Shown here one piece after another: positions 289 through 63,505 of a stretch of 64,000 nucleotides of DNA. Numbering within the stretch: the first letter of the stretch is position 1; the number at the start of each line of letters is the position of its first letter. The stretch covers positions 1-64,000 of IMG/VR virus record IMGVR_UViG_3300047585_000208. One strand, 5' to 3'. The position numbers were made by a program, and so were the translations under genes. The DNA comes from a virus. The notes beneath the pieces are model-generated. The model was not told the DNA's origin, did not search any database, and saw nothing but the letters and a program-made list of their open reading frames with translations.

Positions 289-350
289 AACGCTGGCTGT
301 TCCAGCGTAGCGAAATTTTTTACGTAACGCATTACTCAAAAGGAGAACCC

Positions 351-632
351 GTGATCCAAGAGATTGAAAACCCCGTCGGTCACGCTATAGCTGAGGAACT
401 TCGAGCGAGCCTCCTCAAGCTTCTAGAAGAGACAGCAGACAAGCTCGCTAGAATGGATACGCCTATTCTCGTTTGCGCCTTTGGGCCTGTCGAGCTGGGC
501 CTTGACGGACTGAAATTCGGCATTTTGCATGTCAGGGGCGGGGCAACTAAACGCTGCGACTTACGCACTCCGCTTGTTGCGGGTAATAAGTTTATCGGCG
601 GCGCAATGGACGTACTCGACGAACTCTATTAA
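351..632 (+). CDS. hypothetical protein
   Basis: AAGGAG RBS followed by GTG at 351. The upstream Leu-rich part of track ORF 72..632 is a shadow of the 9-bp repeat. Confidence 0.7.
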   Translation: MIQEIENPVGHAIAEELRASLLKLLEETADKLARMDTPILVCAFGPVELGLDGLKFGILHVRGGATKRCDLRTPLVAGNKFIGGAMDVLDELY

Positions 633-647
633 CAAAGGAGCGCTCAA

Positions 648-848
648 GTGCCAGTCTTCATGCCTTGGAGCGAGTGGCAAACCTATGAAGCTGACGTTAA
701 AAACGTAAAAAGCCCGTTTCTAGCTATTTGGAAGGCTAACCAGTTCTTTGAAACTTGGGTAAAGTACCACGACTGCCTTTACCGCATAACTGGCTGGCAA
801 ATACCTGGTAGTGCTCCGTATGTAATCGCTTTACCTGCGGTTGAGTAA
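648..848 (+). CDS. hypothetical protein
   Basis: AAGGAG RBS; the stop codon lies inside the palindrome. Confidence 0.7.
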   Translation: MPVFMPWSEWQTYEADVKNVKSPFLAIWKANQFFETWVKYHDCLYRITGWQIPGSAPYVIALPAVE

Positions 849-934
849 CGCATTACTCAGAAAAAAGACCGTGCGTTACGGTGGTTTCAGAGTGGCTTAG
901 CGTTTGTCAACTTTAACAAAGGAGGGCTATTTCA

Positions 935-1267
935 ATGAACATTTCCAATCGCCTAACTCGCGACGTTAACATTCAAGTTACACGTCTGCACATTTATCTT
1001 GGGAACCCGCACAGTGCCGTCACTAACCCAGTTGCCCGGGCTACGTGTAAATTGCTCATTCCCGAGTGCAAAGTTCGCGCTGCCGGTGGCCAACTTGTCA
1101 TTCAAGCTGACGAAACACTCACTGCGCGATTATTTGAGCAACCCTGGACTGGTGAACTTCCACTGGCGGTTACAGAGTGGCTTAAAAGCTACAACGCAAA
1201 CCAGTCTTCAGAATTCGAGTTCCAGATGGGTATTCCCGTGAAATTCCTCAAAAACCTTCGAGGCTAA
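935..1267 (+). CDS. small paralog-family protein (ITxxHIxxG...PVAxA...LP...W...F..IP), copy 1
   Basis: GGAGG RBS; motifs shared with 1494 and 53270-54897. Confidence 0.8.
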   Translation: MNISNRLTRDVNIQVTRLHIYLGNPHSAVTNPVARATCKLLIPECKVRAAGGQLVIQADETLTARLFEQPWTGELPLAVTEWLKSYNANQSSEFEFQMGIPVKFLKNLRG

Positions 1268-1274
1268 CACACCT

Positions 1275-1308
1275 TAAAATTCGCCCAAAATGCGCCAATA
1301 TTAAATGC
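1275..1308 (+). promoter_or_regulatory. putative sigma28-like promoter TAAA-N15-GCCAATAT
   Basis: The same bipartite motif recurs at 2478, 15120 and 46748. Confidence 0.55.
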
Positions 1309-1437
1309 TATAGCTTTAGCAATTTTTGCTGGACTGTAGTAAGGTGTCGAAACTACAAGGTAACCTTTAATCTAAGAGGCAAGCCTGAAGAGTGACGGCG
1401 TCTTTCAACACTTTGATCAGGTCTAAACAACCTGACA

Positions 1438-1474
1438 GCCCAACCGGAACTGGGACTTCCGGTTGGGCCTTTTT
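1438..1474 (+). terminator. intrinsic terminator
   Basis: 12-bp stem GCCCAACCGGAA/TTCCGGTTGGGC followed by a T-run. Confidence 0.8.
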
Positions 1475-1493
1475 ACACTTTTAGGAGGGTCAA

Positions 1494-2452: not shown

Positions 2453-2477
2453 TAGTTTTGAGTAATGCGTTACTCAA

Positions 2478-5634: not shown

Positions 5635-5676
5635 TAACCTTAAGTTGAGTAATACATTACTCAAAAGGAAGGAATT

Positions 5677-11921: not shown

Positions 11922-11995
11922 AATTGAGATAGGAGCTTGGTCAGAGGCTATATTCTGATCCTGAGTAACGCATTACTCAACTTTAGGCCTAGACT

Positions 11996-12928: not shown

Positions 12929-13825
12929 ATGCCAGAACAAATCCATTCAATCGATCCTTATGGGCTTAATCCTTTTACGCGAGTAACGGTAGATTACTCC
13001 TTTCGCAATACAACTCGCATCTACTGGGAGTACCAACCCCTCTTTAACGACATTCCTGTTTACAGTATTCAAGTGCAGGTTGCCGAGGTAGATAATCCTA
13101 ATGCGACCTGGACAAATGTTGGAGCTCCTATAGTCGGAACCAACATCCGCTTTATAACCAACGACGAGCTTGGACTAGAGAGTGGGAAAGAGTTGACATT
13201 GTTCTTTAGAGTCGTTCTTACAGCTGCTCCAGGCCCAGGCCCCGAAAACCGTCCAGGTAACATCTATATCTCTCCTACTGCAGGAGTCTTTGGCAATTTA
13301 CCTCCTTTTACTTGGGGGTTATTTCAAGAGATCGTCAGAAAAGAATATCTGCGCTTTGCTTTACTCGGAGTAGCTAATCAGGGCTATCTTTTACAAGAAA
13401 AGCGCTCTGGACCTCTTTGCCCCCTTTGTATTGACCAGTTAACTGGCGAGTGTATAGATTCGGATTGCCCTTCTTGCTGCGGTACTCGCTTCGAGGGTGG
13501 GTTTTGGCCAGGGATTGAAAACTTCTGGTTTGACAGCGAGCCTTTTGGGCATTTCCCGAATATGGACCAGCAAATGCGCGGCACTATTGATGACGATGAA
13601 GTTACAACTGCTCGTGTTATTGCTAATCCTTATTGCACGGCTCGTGATGTTGTTGTCGATCTAACGTCAGATAGGCGCTTTAGGGTAAGGAAAGTAGAAA
13701 CACTGGCGCAATTTCGGATGGTCCCGATTGTGTCGCGAATAACCCTTAAAGAGGCACCATTTTCCGACGCTATCTATAAATTTCCTGTTCCGGCTATTTG
13801 CCCTAGCCAGTGCGATTTTGAGTAA
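12929..13825 (+). CDS. putative neck/head-closure protein with Zn finger
   Basis: G.LCPLC.D......CPSCCGT.F.GG motif followed by a beta-barrel-like C-terminus. Confidence 0.5.
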   Translation: MPEQIHSIDPYGLNPFTRVTVDYSFRNTTRIYWEYQPLFNDIPVYSIQVQVAEVDNPNATWTNVGAPIVGTNIRFITNDELGLESGKELTLFFRVVLTAAPGPGPENRPGNIYISPTAGVFGNLPPFTWGLFQEIVRKEYLRFALLGVANQGYLLQEKRSGPLCPLCIDQLTGECIDSDCPSCCGTRFEGGFWPGIENFWFDSEPFGHFPNMDQQMRGTIDDDEVTTARVIANPYCTARDVVVDLTSDRRFRVRKVETLAQFRMVPIVSRITLKEAPFSDAIYKFPVPAICPSQCDFE

Positions 13826-13848
13826 TGCATTACTCAAAAGGAGAAGCA

Positions 13849-14073: not shown

Positions 14074-14105
14074 GCTGAGTAACGCATTACTCAAAAGGAG
14101 CAGGT

Positions 14106-15155: not shown

Positions 15156-15213
15156 GTAAGATTTAAGTAGTATTCCGAGTAACGCATTACTCAAGTTTTA
15201 AAAGGAGGACCGC

Positions 15214-15565: not shown

Positions 15566-15613
15566 CATAGCTGTCAACAAGTTGAGTAACGCATTACTCA
15601 AAGGAGGAAGGGT

Positions 15614-17027: not shown

Positions 17028-17029
17028 AC

Positions 17030-17328: not shown

Positions 17329-17399
17329 CTTAGTTATTATCTGCCCTATACTTGAAGTAGCTATCTGAGTAATGCATTACTCAAATTTTGGAGCCGATC

Positions 17400-22019: not shown

Positions 22020-22048
22020 TCGAGTAATGCATTACTCAAGGATTTAAT

Positions 22049-25347: not shown

Positions 25348-25369
25348 TGCATTACTCAAGGAGTCCAAA

Positions 25370-30248: not shown

Positions 30249-30255
30249 GATACGC

Positions 30256-32010: not shown

Positions 32011-32035
32011 GTAATGCATTACTCAGATAAAAACT

Positions 32036-33205: not shown

Positions 33206-33207
33206 CA

Positions 33208-33765
33208 ATGCCAGATATTCTGGTTTACACCACTAGCTCAGACGGTCAAATTCTTGTCACCTCAGTTGGGTCGACTCAAGGTATCCCTGCAATTACGCCT
33301 TCGGGGCAGATTACAGCCCCGGCTACTCCGACCTACGTTCAATCCTTAACGCTTAGCTTTGTCCAGCCTGGAACGAACGATCAGTTGATTTTTGGTCCCG
33401 GCTACAGCGGTTTTACTATCCAGGGTGGTCAAAAGCTTGTTCAGCGCTTTCTTCTTCAGTTGTTGACAGTTCAAGGGTCGATTCTCTATAGGCCGCAAAT
33501 TGGAACGAACTTTGTTCCTGAGCTTCAAACGCCTCTTGGCTCAAACGAGTCAGACGTCTTTGCTGCTTTCGCCGCTGCGATGCTTACTCTAGGCCCAAAT
33601 ATGTGGGCAGAGGAGCTTGTTACTGATCCGCCAGACGAACGCTTCTCTAGCGCGACCATGACTCAGCTAACAGTTGGCTCTGGGTCACTCTCTGCTACGA
33701 TTGTGATAGTTAGCTTGGCAGGCGGTACTCAAACGATGTCGCTTCCGCTGAACTTTGCAATTTGA
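33208..33765 (+). CDS. baseplate wedge gp25/W-like protein
   Basis: G.QKLVQRFL..LLT..GS..YRP..GT.F ... PPDER motif. Confidence 0.65.
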   Translation: MPDILVYTTSSDGQILVTSVGSTQGIPAITPSGQITAPATPTYVQSLTLSFVQPGTNDQLIFGPGYSGFTIQGGQKLVQRFLLQLLTVQGSILYRPQIGTNFVPELQTPLGSNESDVFAAFAAAMLTLGPNMWAEELVTDPPDERFSSATMTQLTVGSGSLSATIVIVSLAGGTQTMSLPLNFAI

Positions 33766-33796
33766 GTAATGCGTTACTCAACTTTAGGCCTGGATT

Positions 33797-35437: not shown

Positions 35438-35449
35438 CGGGGTTGAATC

Positions 35450-36670: not shown

Positions 36671-36741
36671 GCGGGTATAGTTCAAGGGTAGAACCCTAGT
36701 TTTCCAAACTAGTCACGTCGGCTCGACTCCGACTACCCGCT
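36671..36741 (+). tRNA. tRNA-Gly (TCC)
   Basis: Acceptor GCGGGTA/TACCCGC; anticodon arm CTAGT-TTTCCAA-ACTAG; T arm GTCGG-CTCGACT-CCGAC; no encoded CCA. Confidence 0.9.
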
Positions 36742-36770
36742 ATAAGCTGAGTAACGCATTACTCAAATGA

Positions 36771-40238: not shown

Positions 40239-41945
40239 GTGGCTCTCTGGGAATTCCCCACAACGTCGCTTGACTCCTTAGCCACTTTTCAGGCGTTCTC
40301 TTCGTCTTATTGGATTGCTGGTCTATTTGGTTCTATCGAGAACATTCTCGATATCAACAATCTTTTCAAAGTTGTTGAAACGCAATTACTAGAACAAAGC
40401 CAGGAGATGCAGGCTTCAGTTGGGCTACAAACCTGCCCAGTCTGGCATACCAGCTGCTGGTATCCAGTAACAATCTTTCAGTCACAAGGAACCCCGGGAA
40501 ATCCGCTCCTATACGGCGCAGGGGAGCTTTATGGGCCACAACCATCAAATCAACCCTCCAGCCCCGTCTCAAGCTTAACTGGGCAATCTATAGGCCTACT
40601 CAGCGCGATCACCTACAGCTCTAACCAGCCACAACCCATTCCTACGAACGGATTGACCTATCTTTACGGCCAAAACCTTGACTCAACAATCAAATATCCT
40701 CTTCCAGGCGAAGTCAGCGAAGCTCTCTATCTTGCGAGTGGTATAACCAATCCGAGCGTAACCTGGGCTTTAGGGGTGGATTTCGAAATAGCGTCTGGTG
40801 AGTCCTTAATCCTTACCCAGAACCCTTTCAGTAATGCATTACTCAACCCAACTGCTGTTACCAACACTTTGGGCGATATTATCGATTACTCATTAACTCT
40901 GTGGTTATTCCGTGCCAAACTTGACTGGGGCTATCTTTACCAGAACTTCGGTTCTGTCTTAGGGATTGGTCAAAGTTTGCCCAGTACTCCGAATTACAAA
41001 AGGTTATTGGAAGCTTACTGGTCTTCGGCTCAAGGAACCACATATGAAAACGTAGTGGAAGCTTTGAGCGCAATGTGCGACGTTCCTTTTGTGAAGTCAA
41101 CTGGTGAAACAGTTGAAATAATTTCTGAAGATAGCGAAAACCTTCTAATCATCACAGATCAACAAGTTTACAAGTTGGCCTTAACAGCTAATCCTTTAGT
41201 GCAAATTGGGCAAACACTAGTTGAAGGACAAGCTTTAGCAGACTCTGTTCAAATCTTTGAGCCTCGTAGAGGCATCCTTCCAAGCGTAATTGGACAAATC
41301 ACACTAGATGACGAGTTTCTGTTAACTGACCTTTCAAACATTCTCGTGTTCGCGAATGTAAACGAGTCGCTGAATGTTCAAACTAACGTCCAAGGTTATA
41401 CGAAGCTCAGCTGGAACCTTGGGGGCTTTCCATCCGACATTGCGACCTTCTTCTCAGATCTTCATGAAAACGGCGTAGAGGCTGGTAATACACTCGCTAA
41501 CTACCTCAGAACTAGCAATGAGCCTTATCCCTGGAGCCTAGAAGAAACTATTTGGTCTAATTGGCAAGTGCCTTGGGGCCAGACTCAGCCACTACCAACG
41601 CTTAACTGGAGTGACGAATCAACTGTTTGGTGGTTATGGAAGCAGCCGTGGGGGCAAGGTGGACCAACCAATCAGCCAACTGCATCTCAACTGCCTACCA
41701 ATATCAACCCAGCTCAGTTTTTAGTTGCTAACGTACTTCGGGATGATTGCTTACTTATTTCGGTTAAACCAGACGAGTTTGGACCAGCTGCACTAGGTCT
41801 TCAGTATTCCTGGGTATTTCGCGAGATGCTTCCACCCCAGACTACTGCGATAATTATTGGAGAAGTGGCTGGTTATGTCGATACGTGTAACGCCGTAGCT
41901 GGGGCCACCTCAAGCTACACAGTAATGGCTGTTCCGGGGCAATGA
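40239..41945 (+). CDS. putative baseplate wedge protein
   Basis: YLYQNFG..LG...S..YK...; context between the J-like gene and fibre genes. Confidence 0.5.
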   Translation: MALWEFPTTSLDSLATFQAFSSSYWIAGLFGSIENILDINNLFKVVETQLLEQSQEMQASVGLQTCPVWHTSCWYPVTIFQSQGTPGNPLLYGAGELYGPQPSNQPSSPVSSLTGQSIGLLSAITYSSNQPQPIPTNGLTYLYGQNLDSTIKYPLPGEVSEALYLASGITNPSVTWALGVDFEIASGESLILTQNPFSNALLNPTAVTNTLGDIIDYSLTLWLFRAKLDWGYLYQNFGSVLGIGQSLPSTPNYKRLLEAYWSSAQGTTYENVVEALSAMCDVPFVKSTGETVEIISEDSENLLIITDQQVYKLALTANPLVQIGQTLVEGQALADSVQIFEPRRGILPSVIGQITLDDEFLLTDLSNILVFANVNESLNVQTNVQGYTKLSWNLGGFPSDIATFFSDLHENGVEAGNTLANYLRTSNEPYPWSLEETIWSNWQVPWGQTQPLPTLNWSDESTVWWLWKQPWGQGGPTNQPTASQLPTNINPAQFLVANVLRDDCLLISVKPDEFGPAALGLQYSWVFREMLPPQTTAIIIGEVAGYVDTCNAVAGATSSYTVMAVPGQ

Positions 41946-47741: not shown

Positions 47742-47786
47742 TGCGTAGCTTTGCTGAGTAACGCATTACTCAGAAAGGAAAAAGAC

Positions 47787-48927: not shown

Positions 48928-49368
48928 GTGCGGCGTATTTTACGGTACCATTTCAAGGGACTGGCTAAGCTTGCAACTTGCTCACCCGGGCAAGCGCTAA
49001 TTGTGTGGTTGTACAGCTGGCCCGATATTAACGAAGTGTGGTTAGACACAATAGTAGAAGCTTTCGAAGAAGAGCTTCTACTGTTTGCCCAACAGTTAGA
49101 TAGGGAGCTTACGTCCAGTGAACAATCTTCTGATTGGCACGGACAAGCTTGTTTGTCTAATTTACCGGACTATTGGCTAACAATCTGGGATAACCGAACG
49201 GCGGCAATAAGCCGCAGAGAAAACGCTATAGACCTTACAACCGGTGAAGACCTGCCAAAGGACTATAATCCTAAACCGCTTTATAGCGTTGCGATTTGCC
49301 TGACCAAGTTGTTCTTGATCGGACGAGCAGGACTTTTCCGCGAACAAACCAAACAAAAACTTGAGTAA
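48928..49368 (+). CDS. hypothetical protein
   Basis: ORF whose stop lies in the palindrome. Confidence 0.55.
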   Translation: MRRILRYHFKGLAKLATCSPGQALIVWLYSWPDINEVWLDTIVEAFEEELLLFAQQLDRELTSSEQSSDWHGQACLSNLPDYWLTIWDNRTAAISRRENAIDLTTGEDLPKDYNPKPLYSVAICLTKLFLIGRAGLFREQTKQKLE

Positions 49369-49443
49369 CGCATTACTCAAATTTCGGCGTAGATTACAAA
49401 TACGCCGCCATCGCTAATTGCCCGATCCAGCCGTGGAACGATA

Positions 49444-50571
49444 ATGCTAGAGGTTCAAAAGTATCTAAAGTCAGGGAAAACGCTTCAAGATCTTTCAGCT
49501 GAACTTGGGATAATCGCATCAGCCCACGACACTCTTCCGCTCGTCATTCTCAATTACGGCCAAATTGATAGCCCCAAAACTAATCCAATCGCGAGAGAGT
49601 GCCGTGGGCTTGTTCTGAATAGCCAGACCTTTGATCTTGTTGCCCGGTCTTTTCCGCGATTCTTCAATTGGGGCGAAGTAGCTGACGAAATGCCCCTTTT
49701 CAATTTCAACACCTTTAATGCCTTTGAAAAAGTCGACGGAAGCTTGGTCATCTTATATAACTTCGAAGGTAAGTGGATGGCTAACACCCGCGGCAGCTTT
49801 GGCACAGGTGCAATTGATCGATTTAGCAACCGAACTTGGCATGATGGGTTTTGTGCAGCGATGGGTGTTGACAATTTAGAAGTTTTAGCTAAAGTTGGAC
49901 TTGATCCAAAGCTTACTTATGTCTGTGAATTCTGCTCTCCATGGAATAAGATTGTTCGGCGTTACCCCGAACCTTTGATGTACTTGTTATCTAGATTTGA
50001 GGGTGAAACTGAAATCCAGTGGAACGAGAACGCTTACCGAGATATCTGTACTACAGGTTTATTTGAAAAGGTTAAGCACTGGCATTTTAGTAACGTTGAT
50101 CAAATTCTTGTCTTTCTAGAAAAGAACAGCACAGACGACCCAACTTTCGAAGGTGTCGTAATTCGCGATGACAACAACCGGCGTTGGAAGATCAAAAGCA
50201 AAACGTACCTAGGTCTCCACGCAATTAAAGGTGCTGAAGGCAATCTGTTTAACCCTAAACATCTATTGCCTTTCGTCTTGTCTGGTAACGGCGCTGAGCT
50301 CTTGACCTACTTTGAAGAAGCCACTGACGCGTTTAATGAGTTAAAGAAAAGCGTTGACCGAGAGTTTGAACAATTAACCCAGGTCTGGCACGATTACAAA
50401 GATGTCGCGGACCAAAAAACCTTCGCACTTGCGATCAATGGGAAAACGCGCTTTACATCGATCTTATTTACGATTAAGAAAAAATTCGGTAACGCCCAAA
50501 CACTTGAACACCTTCAACATGCCTGGCGAAACTCAGAAGCGCAGATTTTAAACAACCTCAAACTTGAGTAA
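49444..50571 (+). CDS. RNA ligase 1 (T4 Rnl1-like)
   Basis: ECRGL, F.RFFN, motif I EKVDGSL, FEGVV and KIKS. Confidence 0.9.
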   Translation: MLEVQKYLKSGKTLQDLSAELGIIASAHDTLPLVILNYGQIDSPKTNPIARECRGLVLNSQTFDLVARSFPRFFNWGEVADEMPLFNFNTFNAFEKVDGSLVILYNFEGKWMANTRGSFGTGAIDRFSNRTWHDGFCAAMGVDNLEVLAKVGLDPKLTYVCEFCSPWNKIVRRYPEPLMYLLSRFEGETEIQWNENAYRDICTTGLFEKVKHWHFSNVDQILVFLEKNSTDDPTFEGVVIRDDNNRRWKIKSKTYLGLHAIKGAEGNLFNPKHLLPFVLSGNGAELLTYFEEATDAFNELKKSVDREFEQLTQVWHDYKDVADQKTFALAINGKTRFTSILFTIKKKFGNAQTLEHLQHAWRNSEAQILNNLKLE

Positions 50572-50649
50572 CGCATTACTCAACTCCGAGTCAGGAGGCA
50601 TACTGGCTACTCGGCAAAGGCCGCATCGTTTCTATAACACGGTGAGCCA

Positions 50650-53123: not shown

Positions 53124-53130
53124 AGGGAAC

Positions 53131-53174: not shown

Positions 53175-53269
53175 AAGGAGACCGTTTTGATCATTGACAT
53201 TGTCTAAAAGAAACCATTCGTGTTTGTCAGTTCAACGGTAAGTAATGCATTACTCAAAGGAGGAGTTTC

Positions 53270-53557
53270 ATGCTTGTGTTAATTAAGGTCACTCACAAAC
53301 TGCTCAATAGTGGTATCCGAAGTAGTTGTACCGAGTGCGCAATTTCTTTGGCGATTAAGCGTCTGGTGAAAAGGCCAGAGCTTGTTTCTGTTGGGATTTC
53401 AAAAATTAATCTTGGGCTCAGCGAAGCAATTGAATTACCGCTTAACGCTTATGTGTGGCGGCAACTCTACGATAAGGGGCTTCGTGTTGGCCCCACGTCG
53501 TTTGAGCTATTTATCCCGGATAACTTACTCAAACCAGAAGTGCTTAAAGCAAATTGA
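53270..53557 (+). CDS. small paralog-family protein, copy 3
   Basis: Palindrome plus AGGAGG; shared family motifs. Confidence 0.8.
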   Translation: MLVLIKVTHKLLNSGIRSSCTECAISLAIKRLVKRPELVSVGISKINLGLSEAIELPLNAYVWRQLYDKGLRVGPTSFELFIPDNLLKPEVLKAN

Positions 53558-53586
53558 GTAATGCGTTACTCAGAAAGGACGATTAA

Positions 53587-53874
53587 ATGAGAATTGTTAT
53601 CACGCATAAACACATCCGCAACGGGGTCAAAGCTGACCCAGCTAATCATCCGCTCAAAAAGGCCGTTGATGACATACTTCGACTCGGTGTCTACGTCAGA
53701 GTCAAACAAGCTTCATTGTTCCTTTACAAAGAAGAACCAACTGAAAAAACACAACCATGGCGGGTTATACCGCTGGCAAGGTCTATTGTCAACTGGGTCA
53801 AAAACTTCGATCTTGGATTCAATCACAGCCCCAGAACGGTCTGGATAAGTTTACCAAAAGAAGTTTTAAAATAA
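53587..53874 (+). CDS. small paralog-family protein, copy 4
   Basis: ITHKHIRNG...HPL..A...W..NFD.G. Confidence 0.8.
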   Translation: MRIVITHKHIRNGVKADPANHPLKKAVDDILRLGVYVRVKQASLFLYKEEPTEKTQPWRVIPLARSIVNWVKNFDLGFNHSPRTVWISLPKEVLK

Positions 53875-53908
53875 ACTGGGCAGCGCATTACTCAAAAGGA
53901 AGGCCTTA

Positions 53909-54202
53909 ATGCAATTTACCATCACACAAGAACACATCGATCACGGGGTCAAAAATAACAGCTTAGCCAACCCAATTGCGTTGGCTATTAATGAAAGCCT
54001 GCGCGATGAGTTTTTCATAAGGATGGGCTGCAGTGTGTTAGGCGTTTTTTCTAAAAATGCGACCGTCAACTTGGCATTGGTATGGGTAGAGCTACCAACT
54101 GACATTAAAGACTGGTACGCAAAATATGGCTTAGGGCTAAAGTGCGGTCCAACGACCTTCGATTTGCGCATTTCAGCTGAGTTTCTAAAGCCAATTAAGT
54201 AA
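53909..54202 (+). CDS. small paralog-family protein, copy 5
   Basis: ITQEHIDHG...NPIALA...LP....W...GPTTF. Confidence 0.8.
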   Translation: MQFTITQEHIDHGVKNNSLANPIALAINESLRDEFFIRMGCSVLGVFSKNATVNLALVWVELPTDIKDWYAKYGLGLKCGPTTFDLRISAEFLKPIK

Positions 54203-54227
54203 GGCATTACTCAAAAGGAGGGCCTTA

Positions 54228-54521
54228 ATGAAGATTACTATCGCTATCACTGAAGAACACATTAAACACGGAATAAGAAAAAGTGCAGCTGACTGTCCAG
54301 TTAAACTTGCGATCGATGAGGTAGTGCGGTCGAACGTGCTTGTGCGTGCTGGGTATTACCTAACAATGCGAGAGCTGGGCAGTGTTGACAGTACCAGAGT
54401 TTTTGTGGCTCGGCTAGTTGAACTACGTTGCTGGATGGGCCGTTTTGATTGCGGCCTCCCCGTTAAACCAATCACATTTGAAATAGATATACCAAACTGG
54501 TTTTTAAAGCCAATTAAGTAA
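54228..54521 (+). CDS. small paralog-family protein, copy 6
   Basis: ITEEHIKHG...CPVKLA. Confidence 0.8.
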   Translation: MKITIAITEEHIKHGIRKSAADCPVKLAIDEVVRSNVLVRAGYYLTMRELGSVDSTRVFVARLVELRCWMGRFDCGLPVKPITFEIDIPNWFLKPIK

Positions 54522-54546
54522 GGCATTACTCAAAAGGAGAGTCTTA

Positions 54547-54897
54547 ATGAAGATTACTATCACTGTCACTGAAGAACACATTAGACACGGAATAAAAAGA
54601 AGTACAGCTAACTGTCCAGTTAAACTTGCGATCGATGAGGTAGTGCGATCGAACGTGCTTGTACGTGTTGGGAATTGCCTAATAATACAAGAGCTGGGCA
54701 GTGTCGTCAAGGCCGGATTTTATTTGAGTCCGCTAGTTGAACCACGTCTCTGGATAGCCCGTTTTGATAACGACCTCCCCGTTAAACCAATCACATTTGA
54801 AATAAATATACCAAGCCGGTTTTTAAAGTTTAGCGCCGACGATGCGCTAACTGCTGCCGGTACTCTCCCGCAAGTTCTCCGAGATACTGTTCGCTGA
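54547..54897 (+). CDS. small paralog-family protein, copy 7 (recent duplicate of copy 6)
   Basis: High nucleotide identity to 54228..54521. Confidence 0.8.
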   Translation: MKITITVTEEHIRHGIKRSTANCPVKLAIDEVVRSNVLVRVGNCLIIQELGSVVKAGFYLSPLVEPRLWIARFDNDLPVKPITFEINIPSRFLKFSADDALTAAGTLPQVLRDTVR

Positions 54898-56035
54898 GCC
54901 TAGTTTGTTCCTGAGAGGCTTCTTTGGCGATGGGCTGAACTCCGAGGCTGCTTAAGAGTCGATCAAGCTGTATAGCGTCTGGAACGGGCAGCGTTGGCAA
55001 AAGCGCCGCTGCCTTTTCGCTATCAACATGAAGTCCGTCGCTAGTAACACGATCCGCAAAGCCATCCCCAAAATAATCGCGAATCTCCGCCAGCTTGACT
55101 CTTTCGAGATCCGCAAGCTTATAAATGCTACCAGTGAGAAGGCCACAATGTTCTTTGGCAACTTCAGCCATCTTCTCACCGGTTAACCCGAAAACAACGT
55201 CTTCGACCGGGCGAATCGCACTATCGTACTGTTTGATTTTCATCGTACGGTCAAACTGATCAATCACACCAGCAACCTTCACTCGCATTCCGGGCTCTCG
55301 CAACTTTGCCCGGTTGCTTTCAAGCATAGTTGCGAATTTGAGCATTTCGCTCTGCAGCTCGCTAAGTTGGTTGCCTTGGCGAGTTGCTTTTACTCTGTTT
55401 TTGATAGCCGTTACGACTTCGCTGCAAGGAGAAGCCCCATGTCCAGCTTGCTTTGTGATGTACTCATTAAGCGCACCAAGCGTAACCCCGTATTCAGCTT
55501 GCTTCTGGAGGATCTTATCTGCAATTTGCTGCCTAATCTCAAACGGCAATTCAACGCGGTGTTTGACAAGATAGTCAGCAGCGGCCTTTACCTCGTTTAC
55601 GTTCACCATCCGGTAGTGCCTGCGCTTACTGCCGTTTTCTTCCCATACAAGTGCAAAGTCGTCGTCACTAAGAGTTGAATCGTCCGGAATAACCGTTTTC
55701 GCCAATTTTATAGATTCGACTTTCTTTTTTAATTCGTCAACGGCATTGCCGATTCCGTGGATATGCGCACAACGAGTAATGCGTTTCTCAATAAACTCAG
55801 CGTCTGTCGGTTTAAAGAGCGCCTTCTTCTCTAGAAAGAAAGCCGCGCTTGTCCAGGTCGCAGCAGCGGTGTCACAAGGGAAGAGCCTGTGCTTTGGATC
55901 ACCGTAGGCCTCTGTAGGAAGCGTAGAATTACCACACAGTTCCTCGTGGCTGGCCTGTTTCACATAATCAGGCGTATTATAAGTAGCCGCGATCTTGTGG
56001 AATTCCCGTTGACCTTTGTCGGAGCGCTGATCCAT
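54830..56035 (-). CDS. hypothetical protein, possibly head-associated
   Basis: 401-aa ORF; two related segments (LPTEAYG...RLFP, LSDDDFA...RHY); recurrent K-x-A motifs. Confidence 0.7.
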   Translation of the reverse strand: MDQRSDKGQREFHKIAATYNTPDYVKQASHEELCGNSTLPTEAYGDPKHRLFPCDTAAATWTSAAFFLEKKALFKPTDAEFIEKRITRCAHIHGIGNAVDELKKKVESIKLAKTVIPDDSTLSDDDFALVWEENGSKRRHYRMVNVNEVKAAADYLVKHRVELPFEIRQQIADKILQKQAEYGVTLGALNEYITKQAGHGASPCSEVVTAIKNRVKATRQGNQLSELQSEMLKFATMLESNRAKLREPGMRVKVAGVIDQFDRTMKIKQYDSAIRPVEDVVFGLTGEKMAEVAKEHCGLLTGSIYKLADLERVKLAEIRDYFGDGFADRVTSDGLHVDSEKAAALLPTLPVPDAIQLDRLLSSLGVQPIAKEASQEQTRLSEQYLGELAGEYRQQLAHRRR

Positions 56036-58705
56036 ATGACGAACCTTTCAAGCCGAATGATTTGGTACGACGTTTTGCAGTGTCTTAATATTGAGACTAC
56101 AACCAAGTCGCTTCCTTGCACAGCCCAGTGTCCTGCGTGCAAAGCGCTTACCCTCCTTATTATGAACGATCAAACGTTTGGCGGAGAGTGGTACTACTGT
56201 ACGAGTTGTAAGATATCAGGAGATAATTTTGACATATGGCAACTTGGTTCTGGATTACCTCCGGTAGAAGCGGCTTTTCGAGCTGCTGAACTGCGGCTGA
56301 TGGCAGACCGCCCAAGCTACGCCGATATTGACGAACATACAGCTCAAGTCAACGAACGAAATGCTAACCTCGAAGTTCTTCGGGAATCTCAAGACTATAT
56401 GCGATCGACCTCCTCGCTCGCGAGGATATTCCCGTTCATCGACGCTAAGAACTCGGACTGGCCCGAAAGATGCGGGAAATTTGTAGGCGCTCTAAGCCGT
56501 ATGCGACTGGCAGAAGTAGTAGTGCCACGCAGGCTCGATAACATTTCCACGAGCCTTCGCCGAAGTATGTTCGGAAAACAGCACCTAAAACCTGAATGGA
56601 ACGAAGTCCTCATAATTCCTTTTTGGGACATGCCGGGAAGGCTATCAGCGGTTACTGGAACTACTTATGACGGACAGCAGTTCTATACTCGCTACATAGC
56701 TGCGCCTTTTAATAAAAAGCCTGGGTCTGGCTTACGGACTGGCGCAGCAATGCTTCAAGTAGGCCTTGATCCGGCAATAAGGCCATTTGCTAAACCATTT
56801 GGCGCTATCCTTGTAGCAATTGATCCTCTAATGGCGCTTGAGCAGCACGCTAGGCAATTCCAAACCTCTGACGAGATATTACCCCTCGTAACGGTTTACC
56901 CGACGGCTAGAGCTTTTCAGTTCAAGCAAGTTTTCGACAACAGACCTATCGTCTTTGTTGGTCGGGAAAACCATGAACTTCCGCTGCTCTTCAAGTGTGC
57001 TCGCGAGCTGGATACTCGTATAGCAGTTATTGAAACAGACCATGTGGCTGGTCCTACTCGTCATTACATGACAACCGACAAAACTTGTCGTGCGTGGATG
57101 GAGTATGAACTTCAGTTTGCTAAGCCTTGGGCAGACGTGCTTGAGCAGCAGCTCGCAAAAATGCAAGCAACTGAAGCAGGACCGTTTCTAGAGAAAGTTG
57201 GATTTACCCAGGACGCCGCTTCGGCCTTTATTAGAGGCTGCCCAGCTACACTGCGTAACCGCCTTACTTTCTTAACAACTGAATCAAAAACTAAGTCAAC
57301 TAAGATCGGGACGATCGAAATAGTCGAAACAGAAGCTGGCTGGCGCATTGCTAAGACGAAGGAGCTTATTTGCAATGCTTCTTTCCGAATCGACGAGCTC
57401 GTGTACATGCAAAGCACCGGTAAGACACTAGCGTCAGGGGTAATCCGGTTCAACGGAGAAGATATTCCATTCTCAGCTCCTTACAGTTCTTTTGACCTAG
57501 CGCCGTTTAGGTGGTTTAAGCACTATCTACTGAAGCTTGGCAAAGGTGTGCTTTCTTTCCATTCCTCTTGGCAAAAACACGCTATCCACATATCGGAGAA
57601 CTTTCATAAGCCGGTTAGTCGCTCTGTAGCTGGAACCTACGGCTGGGACGAACCAAACAAAAATTGGCTCTTTCCTCACTGGACAATCGAAGACGGTGGT
57701 AAGGTCGTGGAGCACAGTGTTACTGATTTTGAAACTCCGTTTAGGCCGTGCCATGTCATTGCCAAACCCAGGAAGTTCACAATTCAGGAGCTCCTCGATC
57801 TTGGAGATATGAACTCAGTTGGTTTTTGGAAGCTTACTGGGGCAGTGCTAGCTAACCTGCTCGCAAAGAGATATTCAGCCAAACCAACTGGAATAGGCCT
57901 CATTGGTTGGAAGCTGCAGTCAACTCTGCCTCTCCTGGAACAACTCGGCTGCGCCTTAATAAAGCGTGGTAATCCAAGAAAGTGGCACAGAAGCCCGGAT
58001 CGCTGGCATGAATACGAGCTAGCTGAACAATGGCCTCTTGCTATGGAGCAGCTTGTGCGCGGCCAGAGGTGGTGGGACTGGATAGCGCAGCCAGAGCATA
58101 ACTGCATTGCTTGCTTTATTCCACTCCAAGGTAGGCTTGCCGCCCTGACTTACGGCTGGACTTTGATCCAAGAGCCACTTTGGGATCGAGTAATGCATTA
58201 CTCAGAATTCGCAAGATTCGTTGTACCGTCTGTGCTCCAGTGGATCGAGGGATCGAATAAGAAAATCAAACTGCACAGCCGCGGGATGTTCGATTGGGCA
58301 TTTGAGATTCTGAGGGAGTGGTTTACTGCGGAAGGTGGGAATCCGGTCGCAATCAACTATGCTGCGCTTGATATCGATGAAACGAACAGCCCGGGGATGA
58401 AGTTTGGTTATGCCCTTCAGGCGGCGCTGAAGAGGAATTTGCTAATAACAACAACAGAAGGGGTTGATGAAGCAGCTGGAACTCTTGTGCTAACTCGCAA
58501 TCAGAAGATTTGGCTAGCTGAAGCAGATCTCAGGACAGCGATTATCAAGAGCCGATCACCAAGGATTCCTGAAGAGCTCGTAACGAAGGAACTTGAAGCT
58601 GCGAAGGTTTTAAGCGAGAGAATTCGTATGGGTGAGAGAGGCTGGCTCTTTGACGAAAAGTGGTTTAGCTCTTGTAAAAGGAGAATTGCAAACGACGAAG
58701 AGTGA
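56036..58705 (+). CDS. primase-like protein with N-terminal Zn ribbon
   Basis: CPAC...WYYCTSC...GD; LIIPFWD..G (DnaG-like); GGAG RBS before ATG 56036. Confidence 0.55.
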   Translation: MTNLSSRMIWYDVLQCLNIETTTKSLPCTAQCPACKALTLLIMNDQTFGGEWYYCTSCKISGDNFDIWQLGSGLPPVEAAFRAAELRLMADRPSYADIDEHTAQVNERNANLEVLRESQDYMRSTSSLARIFPFIDAKNSDWPERCGKFVGALSRMRLAEVVVPRRLDNISTSLRRSMFGKQHLKPEWNEVLIIPFWDMPGRLSAVTGTTYDGQQFYTRYIAAPFNKKPGSGLRTGAAMLQVGLDPAIRPFAKPFGAILVAIDPLMALEQHARQFQTSDEILPLVTVYPTARAFQFKQVFDNRPIVFVGRENHELPLLFKCARELDTRIAVIETDHVAGPTRHYMTTDKTCRAWMEYELQFAKPWADVLEQQLAKMQATEAGPFLEKVGFTQDAASAFIRGCPATLRNRLTFLTTESKTKSTKIGTIEIVETEAGWRIAKTKELICNASFRIDELVYMQSTGKTLASGVIRFNGEDIPFSAPYSSFDLAPFRWFKHYLLKLGKGVLSFHSSWQKHAIHISENFHKPVSRSVAGTYGWDEPNKNWLFPHWTIEDGGKVVEHSVTDFETPFRPCHVIAKPRKFTIQELLDLGDMNSVGFWKLTGAVLANLLAKRYSAKPTGIGLIGWKLQSTLPLLEQLGCALIKRGNPRKWHRSPDRWHEYELAEQWPLAMEQLVRGQRWWDWIAQPEHNCIACFIPLQGRLAALTYGWTLIQEPLWDRVMHYSEFARFVVPSVLQWIEGSNKKIKLHSRGMFDWAFEILREWFTAEGGNPVAINYAALDIDETNSPGMKFGYALQAALKRNLLITTTEGVDEAAGTLVLTRNQKIWLAEADLRTAIIKSRSPRIPEELVTKELEAAKVLSERIRMGERGWLFDEKWFSSCKRRIANDEE

Positions 58706-61125: not shown

Positions 61126-61212
61126 GTCCGAAACCCTTCAATTTCCCATTGACACCCCAAGAGGGTGCTTCTCCTGTATTAGCTAGACGGTTTTACATCA
61201 CAGGAGAATTTA

Positions 61213-61365
61213 GTGCAGCATCAAGAGTTCTTTCCGCGTTATGCAACAACTACGATAGCAGGCGGTTGCATCATCTGGTTTTGTGGCCTAGGCCCTTGGG
61301 CTTTAATTGGAGCGTCCATAGCTCTCGTCCTTAGTAAGTCTTTCCTTAACGAGCTAGACGATTAG
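61213..61365 (+). CDS. small membrane protein (50 aa)
   Basis: AGGAG RBS with GTG start; hydrophobic. Confidence 0.5.
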   Translation: MQHQEFFPRYATTTIAGGCIIWFCGLGPWALIGASIALVLSKSFLNELDD

Positions 61366-61454
61366 TATACGCTCGCAGCTGAGTAACGCATTACTCAGGC
61401 CCTACAGCAGAAGGTAATCTGCTGCTTTCATAAATTCAATTAAGGAGTTTCGCA

Positions 61455-61874
61455 ATGGAAGAAGTAATGACAGCGGCAATGGAAAATTGGCAGCTATGGC
61501 TACTGGGAGTGCTCGGGGTTATAGCTGTATGGCCAATTGGCGGTAAATTTACCATGGGGCTATTCTCAACGGGGGATTTTAGTGACGACATCGCATTTTG
61601 GCTTTGGCCAGCGCTCCTGCCAATGCTTGCAGTGGTCGCGGGGCTTACCGTTACAGTAGCTGTAGCTCACCGAGCTGGTTTAGCGGTTTATGCACTGTAC
61701 CCAAAAGGGAGTTCACTGCATAAAACGCGGGTATTTAAAGCTGGACAAGCTGTTGATTACATGATTACTTGGTTAATTTGCCCGGATGACTGTAAAACGT
61801 TTAAGATTCACCCAAGCAAAGCGTCACAATCCGATTCCAAGTACCCCGTCTTCGGCTACCCAAAGGGTCACTAA
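61455..61874 (+). CDS. membrane protein (xWP family)
   Basis: AAGGAG RBS; two TM segments; FWLWP. Confidence 0.7.
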   Translation: MEEVMTAAMENWQLWLLGVLGVIAVWPIGGKFTMGLFSTGDFSDDIAFWLWPALLPMLAVVAGLTVTVAVAHRAGLAVYALYPKGSSLHKTRVFKAGQAVDYMITWLICPDDCKTFKIHPSKASQSDSKYPVFGYPKGH

Positions 61875-61883
61875 GGAGCGCCA

Positions 61884-62216
61884 ATGCTAACAATCCTCTT
61901 TAGTGGCTGGCCTTACTTCTTGCTCGGACTCCTCTTGACCATCCTCGTTTGGCGAATTGGTTATCACACAACTCTCGGGATCTGCAACGCAAACGAGCAA
62001 GACAGGGGCTGTGGGTTAGTTTTTCTGTTCTGGCCAGTAATTGCAGCTTTCATTGTTATCGTGTCTGCGCTTATTCCCGTCTGTGTGGCCTTACCTCGCT
62101 TAGCGAGATGGCTTCAAGGTGGAGCTAAATTTTCAAAGGCTAACCCACCTGTTACTTACAAGTTCGGTAAATGGTGGATTGATCAAGTTCAAACCTTCTA
62201 CAAACTCAGTAGCTAA
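61884..62216 (+). CDS. membrane protein (xWP family)
   Basis: AAGGAG RBS; FLFWP. Confidence 0.7.
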   Translation: MLTILFSGWPYFLLGLLLTILVWRIGYHTTLGICNANEQDRGCGLVFLFWPVIAAFIVIVSALIPVCVALPRLARWLQGGAKFSKANPPVTYKFGKWWIDQVQTFYKLSS

Positions 62217-62227
62217 AGGAGACCTAA

Positions 62228-62659
62228 ATGGTTGAAATCTTCCTTTTACTGGTTCTTGCTTCGATCGCTCTTTCAAGAGCCTGGCACGAAAGTCCGCTGT
62301 TTATCGCTGCTCGCGAGTACACCAAAGCTTGGCAAACACTTCCGGGATTTAAAGGTTTTGTCGGTAAGCTCGCGAATTGTCATGTTTGTAACGCGTTTCA
62401 CTTTACGTTTTTGCTCCTCGTCCTATTCATTTTGCTGCCAATGCTACTTGGCGGCGGAGCTCCTTTTCTTGGAGAACTAATTTTGACTTGCCTCTCAGCC
62501 ACAACTTTAGTACACTGGCACGGGGACATTAAGAACTATTCAGGAGCACCCCGTGAGTCGAAAGAAAGGCAAGAAGGTCCGTATTCAGAAGCCACCGGAG
62601 CCCCTTTTGGAAGCGCCGGTCAGCCAGATCATACAAGAGCTTGGTCCAGATGCCGCTAA
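62228..62659 (+). CDS. DUF1360-like membrane protein
   Basis: TM...LF...R....G.L..CxxC...F pattern. Confidence 0.55.
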   Translation: MVEIFLLLVLASIALSRAWHESPLFIAAREYTKAWQTLPGFKGFVGKLANCHVCNAFHFTFLLLVLFILLPMLLGGGAPFLGELILTCLSATTLVHWHGDIKNYSGAPRESKERQEGPYSEATGAPFGSAGQPDHTRAWSRCR

Positions 62660-63182
62660 CTGGGACGCTACAATAATTGGCGACGGCAGCGGCAGTACTT
62701 GGGACGGCTCGTGCGGCTGGGCTTCAGTAATCGTTGATAAACACAGCGGAGTTCGAAAAGCTTTTAAAGGGGCTATGACACCCGGTACAAGTTTTCTTGG
62801 CGAGATCTTCGCGTACATCCAGCCTTTACTTTGGTATTCGCGTAACCCTGGAAGGCATTACTTAAGAAAGGCGATGCAAGACCACGCCTTTGCACAGCTA
62901 AAAGTAAACATCATTACAGACTCTGAAACACTGGCTAGGCAGGGGCGTGGTCTGTATTCCCGTGGCGGCTCGCAGCCGCTGTGGCAGATGATTGACAGTA
63001 TTGCAAGCGAAGGGTACAGCTTTAGGTGGTTTTGGATCCGAAGAGATCGAACCGGGCTCAATATGCTCGTTGACCATTTGTCGAGAATGTGCCGAAAAGC
63101 TGTTGAAGATGTTAGCCTGCCCGAAGGAACTAAACTCGAAGATTTTAATCCGGATGTTGCAGAAGAAGGAAGTCAGATATGA
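62553..63182 (+). CDS. RNase H (type 1)-like protein
   Basis: IIGDGS...GWA; GE; IITDS; LW; W; N..VD.LS acidic tetrad. Confidence 0.75.
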   Translation: MSRKKGKKVRIQKPPEPLLEAPVSQIIQELGPDAANWDATIIGDGSGSTWDGSCGWASVIVDKHSGVRKAFKGAMTPGTSFLGEIFAYIQPLLWYSRNPGRHYLRKAMQDHAFAQLKVNIITDSETLARQGRGLYSRGGSQPLWQMIDSIASEGYSFRWFWIRRDRTGLNMLVDHLSRMCRKAVEDVSLPEGTKLEDFNPDVAEEGSQI

Positions 63183-63481
63183 GCGATTTTGCCGGAGCGC
63201 CAACTATAACGACACCGGAAGGCGGTCATCAGAGTAAGTGCTGTATGCGAGCAGACTTACTGCCATTTAAAGCTTTGCGAGATATTTCTCAGGTTCTAGG
63301 TGAAGGTGCTAGGAAGTACGGAGTAGGCAACTGGAAGCTTATCCCAGTCGTGGATCATTTAAATCACGCCGTTGCTCACATCATGGCGAGCCTAGATGGT
63401 AACAGCGAAGAGCCTCATCTGCTGCACGCGGGGTGCCGCATACTCTTCGCAATCGAGTGTAATCGTGATAAAGCTGAGTAA
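63179..63481 (+). CDS. dATP/dGTP diphosphohydrolase N-terminal domain (DUF5664-like) protein
   Basis: R.DLLP..AL..I..VL..GA.KYG..NW......HL.HA..H........HL.HA.C. Confidence 0.8.
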   Translation: MSDFAGAPTITTPEGGHQSKCCMRADLLPFKALRDISQVLGEGARKYGVGNWKLIPVVDHLNHAVAHIMASLDGNSEEPHLLHAGCRILFAIECNRDKAE

Positions 63482-63505
63482 CGCATTACTCAAAAGGAGA
63501 AAGCT

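Follow-up and report, generated by a model that had tools for sequence, protein, structure and literature searches.

Why would a phage carry the same 18-bp palindrome about every 2 kb? The question is raised by a 64,000-nucleotide stretch (hereafter the window), corresponding to bases 1–64000 of the virus record IMGVR_UViG_3300047585_000208, a contig of 137,890 bases with a completeness estimate of 67%. The palindrome, TGAGTAANNNNTTACTCA (TGAGTAA-N4-TTACTCA), is tentatively regarded as a double-stranded DNA site for a dimeric protein, a reading to which, judging from the sequence, we assign a probability of roughly 45%. It is favoured by flanks that are mirror-symmetric and independent of each other, by copies within coding sequences (CDSs) that carry no insertions or deletions, by copies with weak TAAGTAA stems, and by a spacing that is too regular for random placement. 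The 7-4-7 geometry and the near-invariance of the copies also match a repeat of Cluster O mycobacteriophages, as described in the available text of PMC4351075, and argue for the same reading.

Copy number and distribution of the repeat

Nineteen exact copies of the palindrome are found in the window, against none in dinucleotide-preserving shuffles (mean 0.00, largest 0). Copies with up to two mismatches number 28; shuffles had a mean of 0.28 and at most 3. The recurrent 18-bp palindrome reported in a preliminary description of the window is thus real, and the centre counts given there were reproduced: CGCA 12, TGCA 8, GGCA 2, TACA 1, and TGCG 5 including the degenerate copy at 55773 (4 without it). 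The full contig holds 62 copies, 41 of them exact, that is, with perfect arms, 18 with one mismatch and 3 with two. The reversed pattern, searched on the contig as a control, gave 0 matches. Copies span positions 321 to 135441 at a density of one per 2.2 kb, and run through the structural block as through non-structural genes, as the preliminary description had held for accessory and structural genes alike. Distances between copies are over-regular, with a coefficient of variation of 0.75; copies placed uniformly give 0.98 and copies placed at random gene starts 0.97, and only 1.2% and 1.1% of the respective simulations reached 0.75. No intergenic word is enriched other than the palindrome and the Shine-Dalgarno (SD) sequence, nor does any pair of words in a bipartite arrangement stand out.

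Copies found in the window are the following.

321..338 (+), two mismatches, left arm TACGTAA, centre CGCA; SD abuts
842..859 (+), exact, centre CGCA; contains the upstream stop TAA; A-run and hairpin downstream
2459..2476 (+), exact, centre TGCG; followed by a minus-strand terminator-like hairpin
5646..5663 (+), exact, centre TACA; SD abuts; start 13 nt downstream
11962..11979 (+), exact, centre CGCA; ACTTTAGGCC as right flank; no SD, start 16 nt on
13819..13836 (+), exact, centre TGCA; contains the upstream stop; SD abuts; before a Gly-rich micro-protein paralogue
14076..14093 (+), exact, centre CGCA; SD abuts; before a Gly-rich paralogue
15176..15193 (+), one mismatch (CGAGTAA), centre CGCA; SD 7 nt downstream
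15583..15600 (+), exact, centre CGCA; 14 nt past a strong terminator; SD abuts
17366..17383 (+), exact, centre TGCA; 42 nt past a terminator; before a 1539-aa gene
22021..22038 (+), one mismatch (CGAGTAA); between two genes syntenic in relatives
25341..25358 (+), exact, centre TGCA; contains the upstream stop; SD abuts; junction syntenic in relatives
32008..32025 (+), exact, centre TGCA; upstream gene stops at its TGA; sigma-like gene 10 nt further on
33763..33780 (+), exact, centre TGCG; upstream gene stops at its TGA; Baseplate_J gene follows
36748..36765 (+), exact, centre CGCA; 7 nt past tRNA-Gly
40828..40845 (+), within a CDS, one mismatch (TCAGTAA), centre TGCA; encodes FSNALLN over a conserved NPF..N.L segment
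42519..42536 (+), exact, centre TGCG; contains the upstream stop; then SD
47755..47772 (+), exact, centre CGCA; then SD
49362..49379 (+), exact, centre CGCA; then a handle-like hairpin
50565..50582 (+), exact, centre CGCA; then hairpin AGTCAG / CTGGCT (about 50589–50608)
53239..53256 (+), one mismatch (TAAGTAA); SD abuts; before the first tandem 95-aa paralogue
53555..53572 (+), exact, centre TGCG; before a 95-aa paralogue
54196..54213 (+), one mismatch (TAAGTAA), centre GGCA; before a 97-aa paralogue
54515..54532 (+), one mismatch (TAAGTAA), centre GGCA; before a 116-aa paralogue
55773..55790 (+), two mismatches, centre TGCG; inside a minus-strand 401-aa gene; weakest member, could be chance
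58187..58204 (+), within a CDS, one mismatch; frame CGA GTA ATG CAT TAC TCA, T to C at position 1 avoiding a stop
61380..61397 (+), exact, centre CGCA; divergent region after the terminase gene; then a handle-like hairpin
63475..63492 (+), exact, centre CGCA; contains the upstream stop; SD abuts

Anatomy of the repeat

The repeat is a 20–24-bp dyad, (AGT)-Y-TGAGTAA-YGCR-TTACTCA-R-(ACT). The consensus drawn from the 62 copies reads A-G-T / T-G-A-G-T-A-A / Y-G-C-R / T-T-A-C-T-C-A / R. Residues in positions 4–7, 10 and 12–18 match it in 60–62 copies. Variable positions are 1 (T in 55), 2 (G in 53), 8 (C in 28, T in 30) and 11 (A in 51, G in 11); neutral decay after a recent burst would not produce a pattern limited to these four. 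Centres over the contig are CGCA (26), TGCA (19), TGCG (8), GGCA (3) and others (6), and CGCG is absent. Further upstream, from -29 to -3, information stays below 0.12 bit, and no conserved promoter is found at a fixed distance.

Preferences extend beyond the arms in a symmetric fashion. Position 0 (T in 40, C in 18) mirrors position 19 (A in 43, G in 18), the latter being a purine in 61 of the 62 copies, and Watson-Crick combinations of the two occur as often as expected (33 observed, 33.0 expected). Where no SD adjoins the copy (n = 30), the A-C-T on the right is the mirror image of the A-G-T on the left, and ACT is present in 10 cases (p = 2e-11). Left AGT and right ACT are independent and do not tend to occur together (Fisher p = 0.37). 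A mirrored preference without pairing fits two protein subunits placed on two half-sites, rather than a longer stem; extension of the stem into the flanks was dropped, since covariation is missing.

Covariation is missing also between the arms, where no change is compensated in the 62 copies. C in position 1 yields a C.A mismatch in 7 copies and A in position 2 an A.C mismatch in 8, their partners in positions 17 and 18 being kept in 62 and 61 copies, respectively. RNA folding of the consensus gives -5.0 kcal/mol, and only -1.2 kcal/mol in the eight TAAGTAA copies, which are otherwise perfect and sit at the usual location. The core stem is predicted in its sequence context with a median pair probability of 0.89, a value of 0.5 being exceeded in 71% of the copies. 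With 2 G-C pairs of 7 and an A-rich SD sequence behind, the stem is not of the intrinsic terminator type. One exception is copy 125846, which is extended by GAGC/GCTC, is followed by TTTTCGTTTT, and makes the top of a terminator stem.

Placement relative to genes

Thirty of the 62 copies are located 10–22 nt upstream of a called start, and an SD-like word lies within 12 nt of 32, in line with the initial remark that most copies are found just upstream of a ribosome-binding site. Motif-adjacent genes start with ATG in 26 of 30 cases, compared with 95 of 136 other genes (p = 0.07). Junctions of plus-strand genes with gaps up to 20 nt (n = 49) hold 0 copies, those with gaps of 21–30 nt hold one in 9 of 12 cases, and overall 52 of 157 junctions are occupied. 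The stop codon of the upstream gene is provided by the TGA of the motif in 12 copies, and by its TAA in 14. Strong intrinsic terminators are present on the plus strand. Distances from terminator to copy are +4 nt at 108553, -2 at 112617, +14 at 15538, and +28 at both 104617 and 135382; at copy 102728 a terminator begins 2 nt downstream. A terminator hairpin of the form GAGCAGCCCTA(CC/GG)TAGGGCTGCTC, followed by a T-run, was observed at contig positions 104617–104693, 133440–133471 and 135382–135458. Two of these three hairpins, which lie near the Ro60 gene, are followed by an identical 30-nt spacer and then by a palindrome copy.

Five of the 62 copies reside inside genes, and no SD or start follows the copies found in CDSs. 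The copies at 40828 and 58187 singled out early on are real, with one mismatch each, and the one at 55773 has two mismatches; the fourth, at 46071, is only a look-alike with five mismatches and the core GTAACGCGTTAC, and may be due to chance. The FSNALLN residues encoded by copy 40828 align without gaps to FDNELIS and FSDTRVP in an orthologue comparison, over a conserved NPF(S/D)N(A/E)L(L/I) segment. At 58187 and 73674 no six-codon insertion was seen relative to orthologues, which, identity being low at both places, makes moderate evidence. In none of the three copies tested was an 18-nt insertion into coding sequence seen, substitutions being found instead. Copies 58187 and 125785 feature C in position 1 precisely where T would give an in-frame TGA.

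The association with starts is in part inherited, as 10 of the 30 start-adjacent copies precede members of two paralogue families. Gly-rich micro-proteins (12 members, 74–110 aa) are encoded in the window at 13849–14339 and 16806–17293, and elsewhere in the contig at 67344, 81085–81660 and 88084–90488; the palindrome and AAAGGAG are found directly upstream of 7 of the 12. Five tandem paralogues of 95–116 aa (MKITI.VTEEHI..G...) fill positions 53270–54897 of the window, with a motif copy before each; the copy at 53877 has a decayed left arm. Motif and SD are carried by 3 of 4 tandem 95-aa paralogues. A search of the ESM Atlas with one tandem paralogue returned viral hypothetical proteins only. 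Motif and SD were clearly duplicated together with the two families, some copies having spread in this way.

Related phages and other collections

Three related phages were compared: G001 (94 kb; 18 proteins shared with the phage), G002 (200,903 bases, with terminal repeats; 30 shared) and G003 (202,582 bases; 25 shared). Through the structural block the shared proteins are encoded in the same order. At the junctions marked by copies 22021, 25341, 32008 and 33763, the relatives have nothing but a short spacer with an SD between stop and start, and the junctions of the phage are about 18 nt longer than their counterparts. No repeated junction palindrome was seen in 15 other relative loci. The closest relatives by protein were found for a conserved 646-aa protein, at 63–69% identity. 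Absent as it is from syntenic relatives, the motif must have been added recently to a gene-expression system that already worked. G003 has 41 copies of AGCGCGCT, for the most part in the form GTAGCGCGCTAC; almost all are intragenic and share one orientation, and a single reading frame predominates. GTAGCGCGCTAC was rejected as an analogue of the motif, being an in-frame coding motif.

The exact motif has 0 matches in IMG/VR. It was found in 59 metagenome stretches, none of which shares sequence with the phage beyond the motif. In many of these stretches (33–42% G+C) the same 18-mer is nested in a longer, unrelated repeat, ..TTTTGC-TGAGTAATGCATTACTCA-GCAAAA.., often present twice about 38 nt apart, which looks like a transposon-type inverted repeat of another organism. 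The genomes of 185,579 species contain 12 single matches, compared with about 35 expected by chance, and none has more than one copy. Rfam, searched at the gathering threshold over the contig except 116001–120000, gave only a tRNA and no family on the palindrome. The opinion that this is no known site is borne out by these searches. Among the sequences compared, the motif appears private to this phage, matches in other collections being seemingly unrelated or at chance level.

One RNA-library run yielded short contigs, of which 8 aligned, and one of these ends 3 nt past copy 22021. Another RNA-library contig spans a motif copy whose flank is present neither in the phage contig nor in G001–G003. 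Assembled contigs of this type cannot show RNA ends, and the parts they leave uncovered are uninformative, so no conclusion was drawn from them.

A second hairpin and a Cas12m-like gene

A second type of hairpin, with 6–7-bp stems, AGA...TCT at the top and loops of 6–11 nt, is present in about 17–19 copies on the plus strand. Stem sequences vary yet pair: GGCGTA/TACGCC, CGTCAGA/TCTGACG, TGGTAGA/TCTACCA, CAGCAGA/TCTGCTG, CGGCGGA/TCCGCCG. Two members in the window are the following.

49385..49407 (+), CGGCGTA / 9-nt loop / TACGCCG, 5 nt past a palindrome
61405..61424 (+), CAGCAGA / 6-nt loop / TCTGCTG, 7 nt past a palindrome

Others are found at contig positions 84980, 89455, 93523, 99690, 115172, 131374, 135447 and elsewhere. 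According to the available text of PMC10442227, the scaffold of the Cas12m CRISPR RNA consists of a 6-bp stem with an 8–9-nt loop, placed 2 nt before the guide, and the ordered 5' part of the Cas12m2 scaffold begins 6–7 nt before its stem. The second hairpin matches this handle geometry; the palindrome, with its 7-bp stem and 4-nt loop, does not. A protein of 573 aa (contig 113432–115153) matches PDB entry 23vw_A, 'CRISPR-associated DNA-binding protein Cas12m', along almost all of its length (E = 6e-38). No CRISPR array was found in the 138-kb contig. Cas12m gene, handle hairpins and palindrome are all present in the phage, and all absent from G001–G003.

Another relative, L207 (201.9 kb), encodes a Cas12m homologue (25% identity) followed by an array of 11 repeats, with a 36-nt repeat and 72–74-nt spacing (7876–8619). 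The repeat of this V-M array, ATCGTAATACCTGCTCATCGGTTTAGAAGATGAGAC, differs in its 5' part from the palindrome. The idea that the palindrome could be stem I of a Cas12m repeat was dropped in the light of the L207 array and of the scaffold geometry.

Gene content of the contig

The contig has a G+C content of 48%, and crude open reading frame (ORF) calls gave 192 genes, 166 of them on the plus strand. PHROGs assigned 0 families to 10 large proteins, and a megablast search of bases 30000–36000 against 50,697 phage records gave no match. The gene for the large terminase subunit (59242–61125, minus strand; GpA_ATPase, E = 3e-9) lies in a small conserved minus-strand island. A Baseplate_J gene was recognised, as were DNA polymerase A, RecA-like, SbcC/Rad50-like, Thg1, RNA ligase and DUF1559/N_methyl proteins. 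A Ro60 gene (TROVE and vWA_Ro60 matches) is located at contig 133645–135354. The DUF1559 (SBP_bac_10) protein is accompanied in the contig by two proteins with N_methyl prepilin-type motifs; we take both families to be typical of Planctomycetota, which gives a weak hint on the host. The only tRNA found in the contig is the following.

36671..36741 (+), tRNA-Gly(TCC), directly upstream of copy 36748

Three TnpB-like genes (63910–64986; 93859–95142, 427 aa; 126982–128061) were found, two being Cas12f1-like_TNB. An IS607-type resolvase gene (126227–127003) lies upstream of one, and a 34-aa HTH_17-like remnant upstream of another. No site-specific recombinase other than this resolvase was found in 138 kb. 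Y1 transposases (PF01797, RAYT/TnpA) gave no match at E <= 1 in 138 kb, in a search whose controls were positive in 10 of 14 cases. The T7-type RNA_pol profile gave no match in the contig, and none in control genomes either. A 245-aa protein encoded in the tail/baseplate block (32036–32773) looks like a sigma-70-family factor: it has a region-3 match of 24.6–26.1 bits and a C-terminal helix-turn-helix resembling region 4, although PF04545 did not match it, and homologues of 35–51% identity are present in G001–G003.

Comparison with known systems

The repeat belongs to an already known, unexplained kind of dispersed phage repeat. Cluster O mycobacteriophages carry 34 or more copies of the 17-bp TGTTCGGNNNCCGAACA, with invariant 7-bp arms and a function described as unknown; its authors predict that it is bound by a dimeric protein (Cresawn et al. 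2015, PMC4351075; here and below as far as the available text goes). The two repeats have in common 7-bp inverted arms, a short variable centre and more than 30 near-invariant copies spread over the genome, some in genes, in numbers that exceed chance many times over. In both cases the phages are not obviously temperate and no binder is known. They differ in sequence, in the spacer (3 nt there, 4 nt here), and in the host and phage group. About one third of the Cluster O copies are found in genes, whereas only 5 of 62 are here; the Cluster O repeat is not linked to starts, while this one is tightly linked. The former is common to all five members of the cluster, the latter absent from every relative compared.

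Cluster K mycobacteriophages feature a 13-bp asymmetric Start-Associated Sequence (SAS) which contains the SD, and which is preceded in half of the cases by imperfect inverted repeats (extended SAS, ESAS; Pope et al. 2011, PMC3203893, available text). As in the phage analysed here, these elements stand just before starts, are fused to a strong AGGAG-type SD, favour ATG and have no known function. The upstream stop is sometimes inside the element, ESAS inverted repeats are directly upstream of the SD part, and one half of the inverted repeat is better conserved; the Cluster K authors found little support for an mRNA hairpin. ESAS arms, in contrast, are imperfect 17-mers with a variable 4–13-bp spacer, rather than perfect 7-mers with a fixed 4-bp centre, and it is the left arm which is better conserved there, the right one here. 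SAS elements are restricted to the non-structural half of the genome, while the present repeat occurs in structural and non-structural regions alike. The present repeat joins the perfect short dyad of Cluster O to the start linkage of Cluster K.

Other dispersed sites are less similar. Cluster A stoperators are asymmetric 13-mers oriented with transcription, in temperate phages with a known repressor. Stoperators likewise occur by the dozen in short intergenic spaces of co-oriented operons, where a DNA-bound protein is proposed to stop read-through transcription; here the site is a dyad, and neither Phage_integrase nor HTH_3 matched in the 138 kb of a genome 67% complete. Repetitive extragenic palindromes (REPs) are short intergenic palindromes present in many near-identical, lineage-specific copies, and can affect mRNA stability and termination. 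Unlike REPs and their associated tyrosine transposases (RAYTs), the present palindrome is shorter and perfect, comes before starts rather than after stops, has no Y1 transposase with it, entered CDSs by substitution, and is not found in numbers in any bacterial genome. KorB reads a dozen or more O_B sites throughout RK2, as C1 does with its operators throughout phage P1. In those systems proteins and genes are known; no ParB_N match was obtained here, and copy number and identity are much higher.

A possible DNA site and its alternatives

If the palindrome is a DNA site, the predicted binder is a homodimer, which may be encoded by the phage, possibly in the missing third of the genome, or be a host protein. 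Selection would have placed and kept the site about every 2 kb, mostly in the stop-to-SD gaps that are the only free DNA of this densely packed genome, and occasionally in genes. The bound protein would act on transcription through the long co-oriented operons, possibly by blocking or pausing it, or by acting as an insulator, where one cistron meets the next, or by making a chromosome-organising lattice; it would probably not act on initiation at a classical promoter. A genome-wide site for a dimeric protein had been proposed in the preliminary description, and flanks, indel-free copies in CDSs and spacing speak for it; the search for a binder was fruitless.

Several observations weigh against a dimer site. 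HTH_3, MerR_1, ParB_N and Phage_integrase profiles gave no match in the 138 kb, which represent an estimated 67% of the genome; the parS-like organisation suggested earlier is not supported, as ParB_N (PF02195) was missing even at E <= 1. The sole HTH_17 match (15.9 bits) is the 34-aa ORF beside a TnpB gene, and Pfam searches on 140 small and medium proteins (E 0.001 and 0.1) gave no DNA-binding family among those listed (25 of 78 families in the second search). The halves of the repeat are unequal. Arm changes number 19 on the left and 5 on the right (p = 0.007); a changed left arm with intact centre and right arm is found in 12 copies, the reverse in 3 (p = 0.035). Orientation had been thought to be free: both CGCA and TGCG do occur, but CGCA is in excess, 26 to 8 (p = 0.003). 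One-C centres are over-represented (chi-square p = 2e-4), and no copy has CGCG (Fisher p = 8e-4). The commonest centre, CGCA, is thus asymmetric and orientation-biased, as a symmetric dimer would not predict; together with the better-kept right arm it leaves room for a signal at an RNA 5' edge or for a promoter. AAAGGAG follows the motif in 17 of 30 adjacent genes, and is found at 11 of 136 other genes (p = 1.5e-8). Copies in long spacers adjoin the start, not the stop (321, 15176, 15583, 17366, 36748, 53239, 95630, 105306, 112647). The 16-nt core of the motif has 1, 0 and 1 near matches in G001, G002 and G003, where no comparable intergenic repeat was found, and no junction palindrome was seen in 86 further loci around the conserved 646-aa gene (relatives at 42–63% identity). 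Ten of the 62 copies are followed, at a fixed 5–8 nt, by the hairpin resembling a Cas12m handle, a coupling which speaks for the right edge of the site as an RNA 5' boundary, and which is the most unusual trait of the repeat. Start association, unequal halves and this coupling had not been part of the preliminary description.

Could the palindrome act as RNA? The transcribed 7-bp/4-nt hairpin would then mark the 5' edges of the cistrons on a polycistronic message: loop and 3' arm would be read by an endoribonuclease or RNA-binding protein, which would cut or bind at the 3' base of the stem, downstream RNAs starting with an SD or a Cas12m handle and upstream RNAs ending in a protective hairpin. 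We regard this as rather unlikely, although the 3' arm, C17-A18 and the purine in position 19 are each kept in 61–62 copies while the pairing partners in positions 1–2 vary, the centre is orientation-biased, a strong SD abuts the stem, and the stem is predicted in context. The 5–8 nt gap in front of the handle-like hairpin also matches the 5' part of the Cas12m2 scaffold (PMC10442227, available text), and the RNA-library contig ending past copy 22021 is a single weak coincidence in the same direction. Against a hairpin stand the changes in positions 1–2, which break pairs and are never compensated, the eight copies at only -1.2 kcal/mol, and flank preferences mirrored without pairing. Good copies in three long genes would cause those mRNAs to be cut or bound, with no start behind. 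The stem is weak, no RNA family matched, and to our knowledge the loop is no known stable tetraloop. In a related account, which seems improbable as a whole, the palindrome would mark the 5' edges of RNA units as part of a self-directed control layer acquired with an array-less Cas12m by this phage alone among its relatives. Leaders cut or started at the right edge would begin with an SD or a Cas12m handle, and a DNA-binding, non-cutting Cas12m, loaded from leaders of the phage itself, would provide a CRISPR-style punctuation of phage operons. It draws on the 10 of about 19 handles found 5–8 nt past a palindrome, on the joint presence and absence of the components, and on the conserved side facing handle or SD. 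A compact phage-specific promoter, read by host RNA polymerase with a phage factor and starting at the purine after the motif, is improbable as well; mRNAs would be born with a 5'-terminal SD or Cas12m handle. Sigma-70-type sites are indeed at shuffle level (20, compared with 20.7), the sole strong intergenic one on the plus strand (63859–63887, TTGACA-17-TATGAT) preceding the first TnpB gene, and some gaps between terminator and SD (108553 +4, 112617 -2, 15538 +14 nt) are too short to hold another promoter. Besides the SD, the motif alone is enriched among intergenic words, position 19 is a purine in 61 copies, a conserved sigma-like gene is at hand, and a density of one per 2.2 kb with asymmetric conservation resembles the promoter sets of T7-type phages. 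Dyad symmetry, however, has no role in a promoter, and the motif does not fit the -35/-10 spacing of sigma-70 (hexamers 16–18 bp apart in the consensus). The sigma-like gene is common to G001–G003, which lack the motif; no T7-type polymerase was seen, in a search whose control was negative too. Copy 102728 has a terminator 2 nt on, copy 125846 caps a terminator stem of which it is part, and copies in CDSs have no nearby gene to drive. A MerR-type promoter with the 7-4-7 operator in its spacer was rejected, as the -10 would fall between SD and ATG.

Mobility offers other explanations. A selfish, REP-like mini-palindrome, spread by a transposase or by copy-and-paste of junction modules and tolerated only between stop and SD with little function of its own, is quite improbable. 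It would account for near-identical copies private to one lineage, for an information content estimated as far above the need of 62 sites in about 200 kb, and for phage junctions longer by about 18 nt; IS605/IS607-type genes (three TnpB-like ORFs, a resolvase) are in the contig, and motif and SD were evidently co-duplicated with two paralogue families. No Y1 transposase was found, however, the three copies tested in CDSs are substitutions and not 18-nt insertions, and variation restricted to positions 1, 2, 8 and 11 indicates purifying selection on the remainder. Copies are over-regularly spaced rather than clustered, and none of the 185,579 species representatives has more than one. A joint for the shuffling of gene cassettes, with palindromes as crossover points, had also been suggested, and is highly improbable. 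Sites do flank many small accessory genes and paralogue arrays, and gene 14 of phage Corndog is flanked by a 17-bp direct repeat (PMC4351075, available text). The motif is found, however, at junctions whose flanking genes are neighbours, in unchanged order, in the motif-free G001–G003 (22021, 25341, 32008, 33763), the three copies tested in CDSs carry no insertion, and the IS607-type resolvase is the only candidate recombinase. In Cluster O, too, hardly any repeats, if any at all, coincide with points of rearrangement, according to the available text of PMC4351075. Mobile-element and cassette models are thus disfavoured by the missing Y1 transposase, by substitution within CDSs, by the four variable positions and by the syntenic pairs.

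Significance

Dispersed, near-invariant dyad repeats have been seen in phages since at least 2011–2015 (PMC3203893, PMC4351075), in the available text of both without an explained binder or role. The repeat described here is a clean further case, and comes from a phage of a very different sort: uncultured, about 200 kb in size and nearly devoid of annotated genes. The options are narrowed by the fusion to the SD, by the fixed coupling to hairpins resembling the Cas12m handle, and by the absence from syntenic relatives. A possible use is as a compact, portable junction element for synthetic operons. The binder or the RNA ends, if found, would tell whether such repeats serve the control of elongation, the organisation of the chromosome or the punctuation of mRNA.

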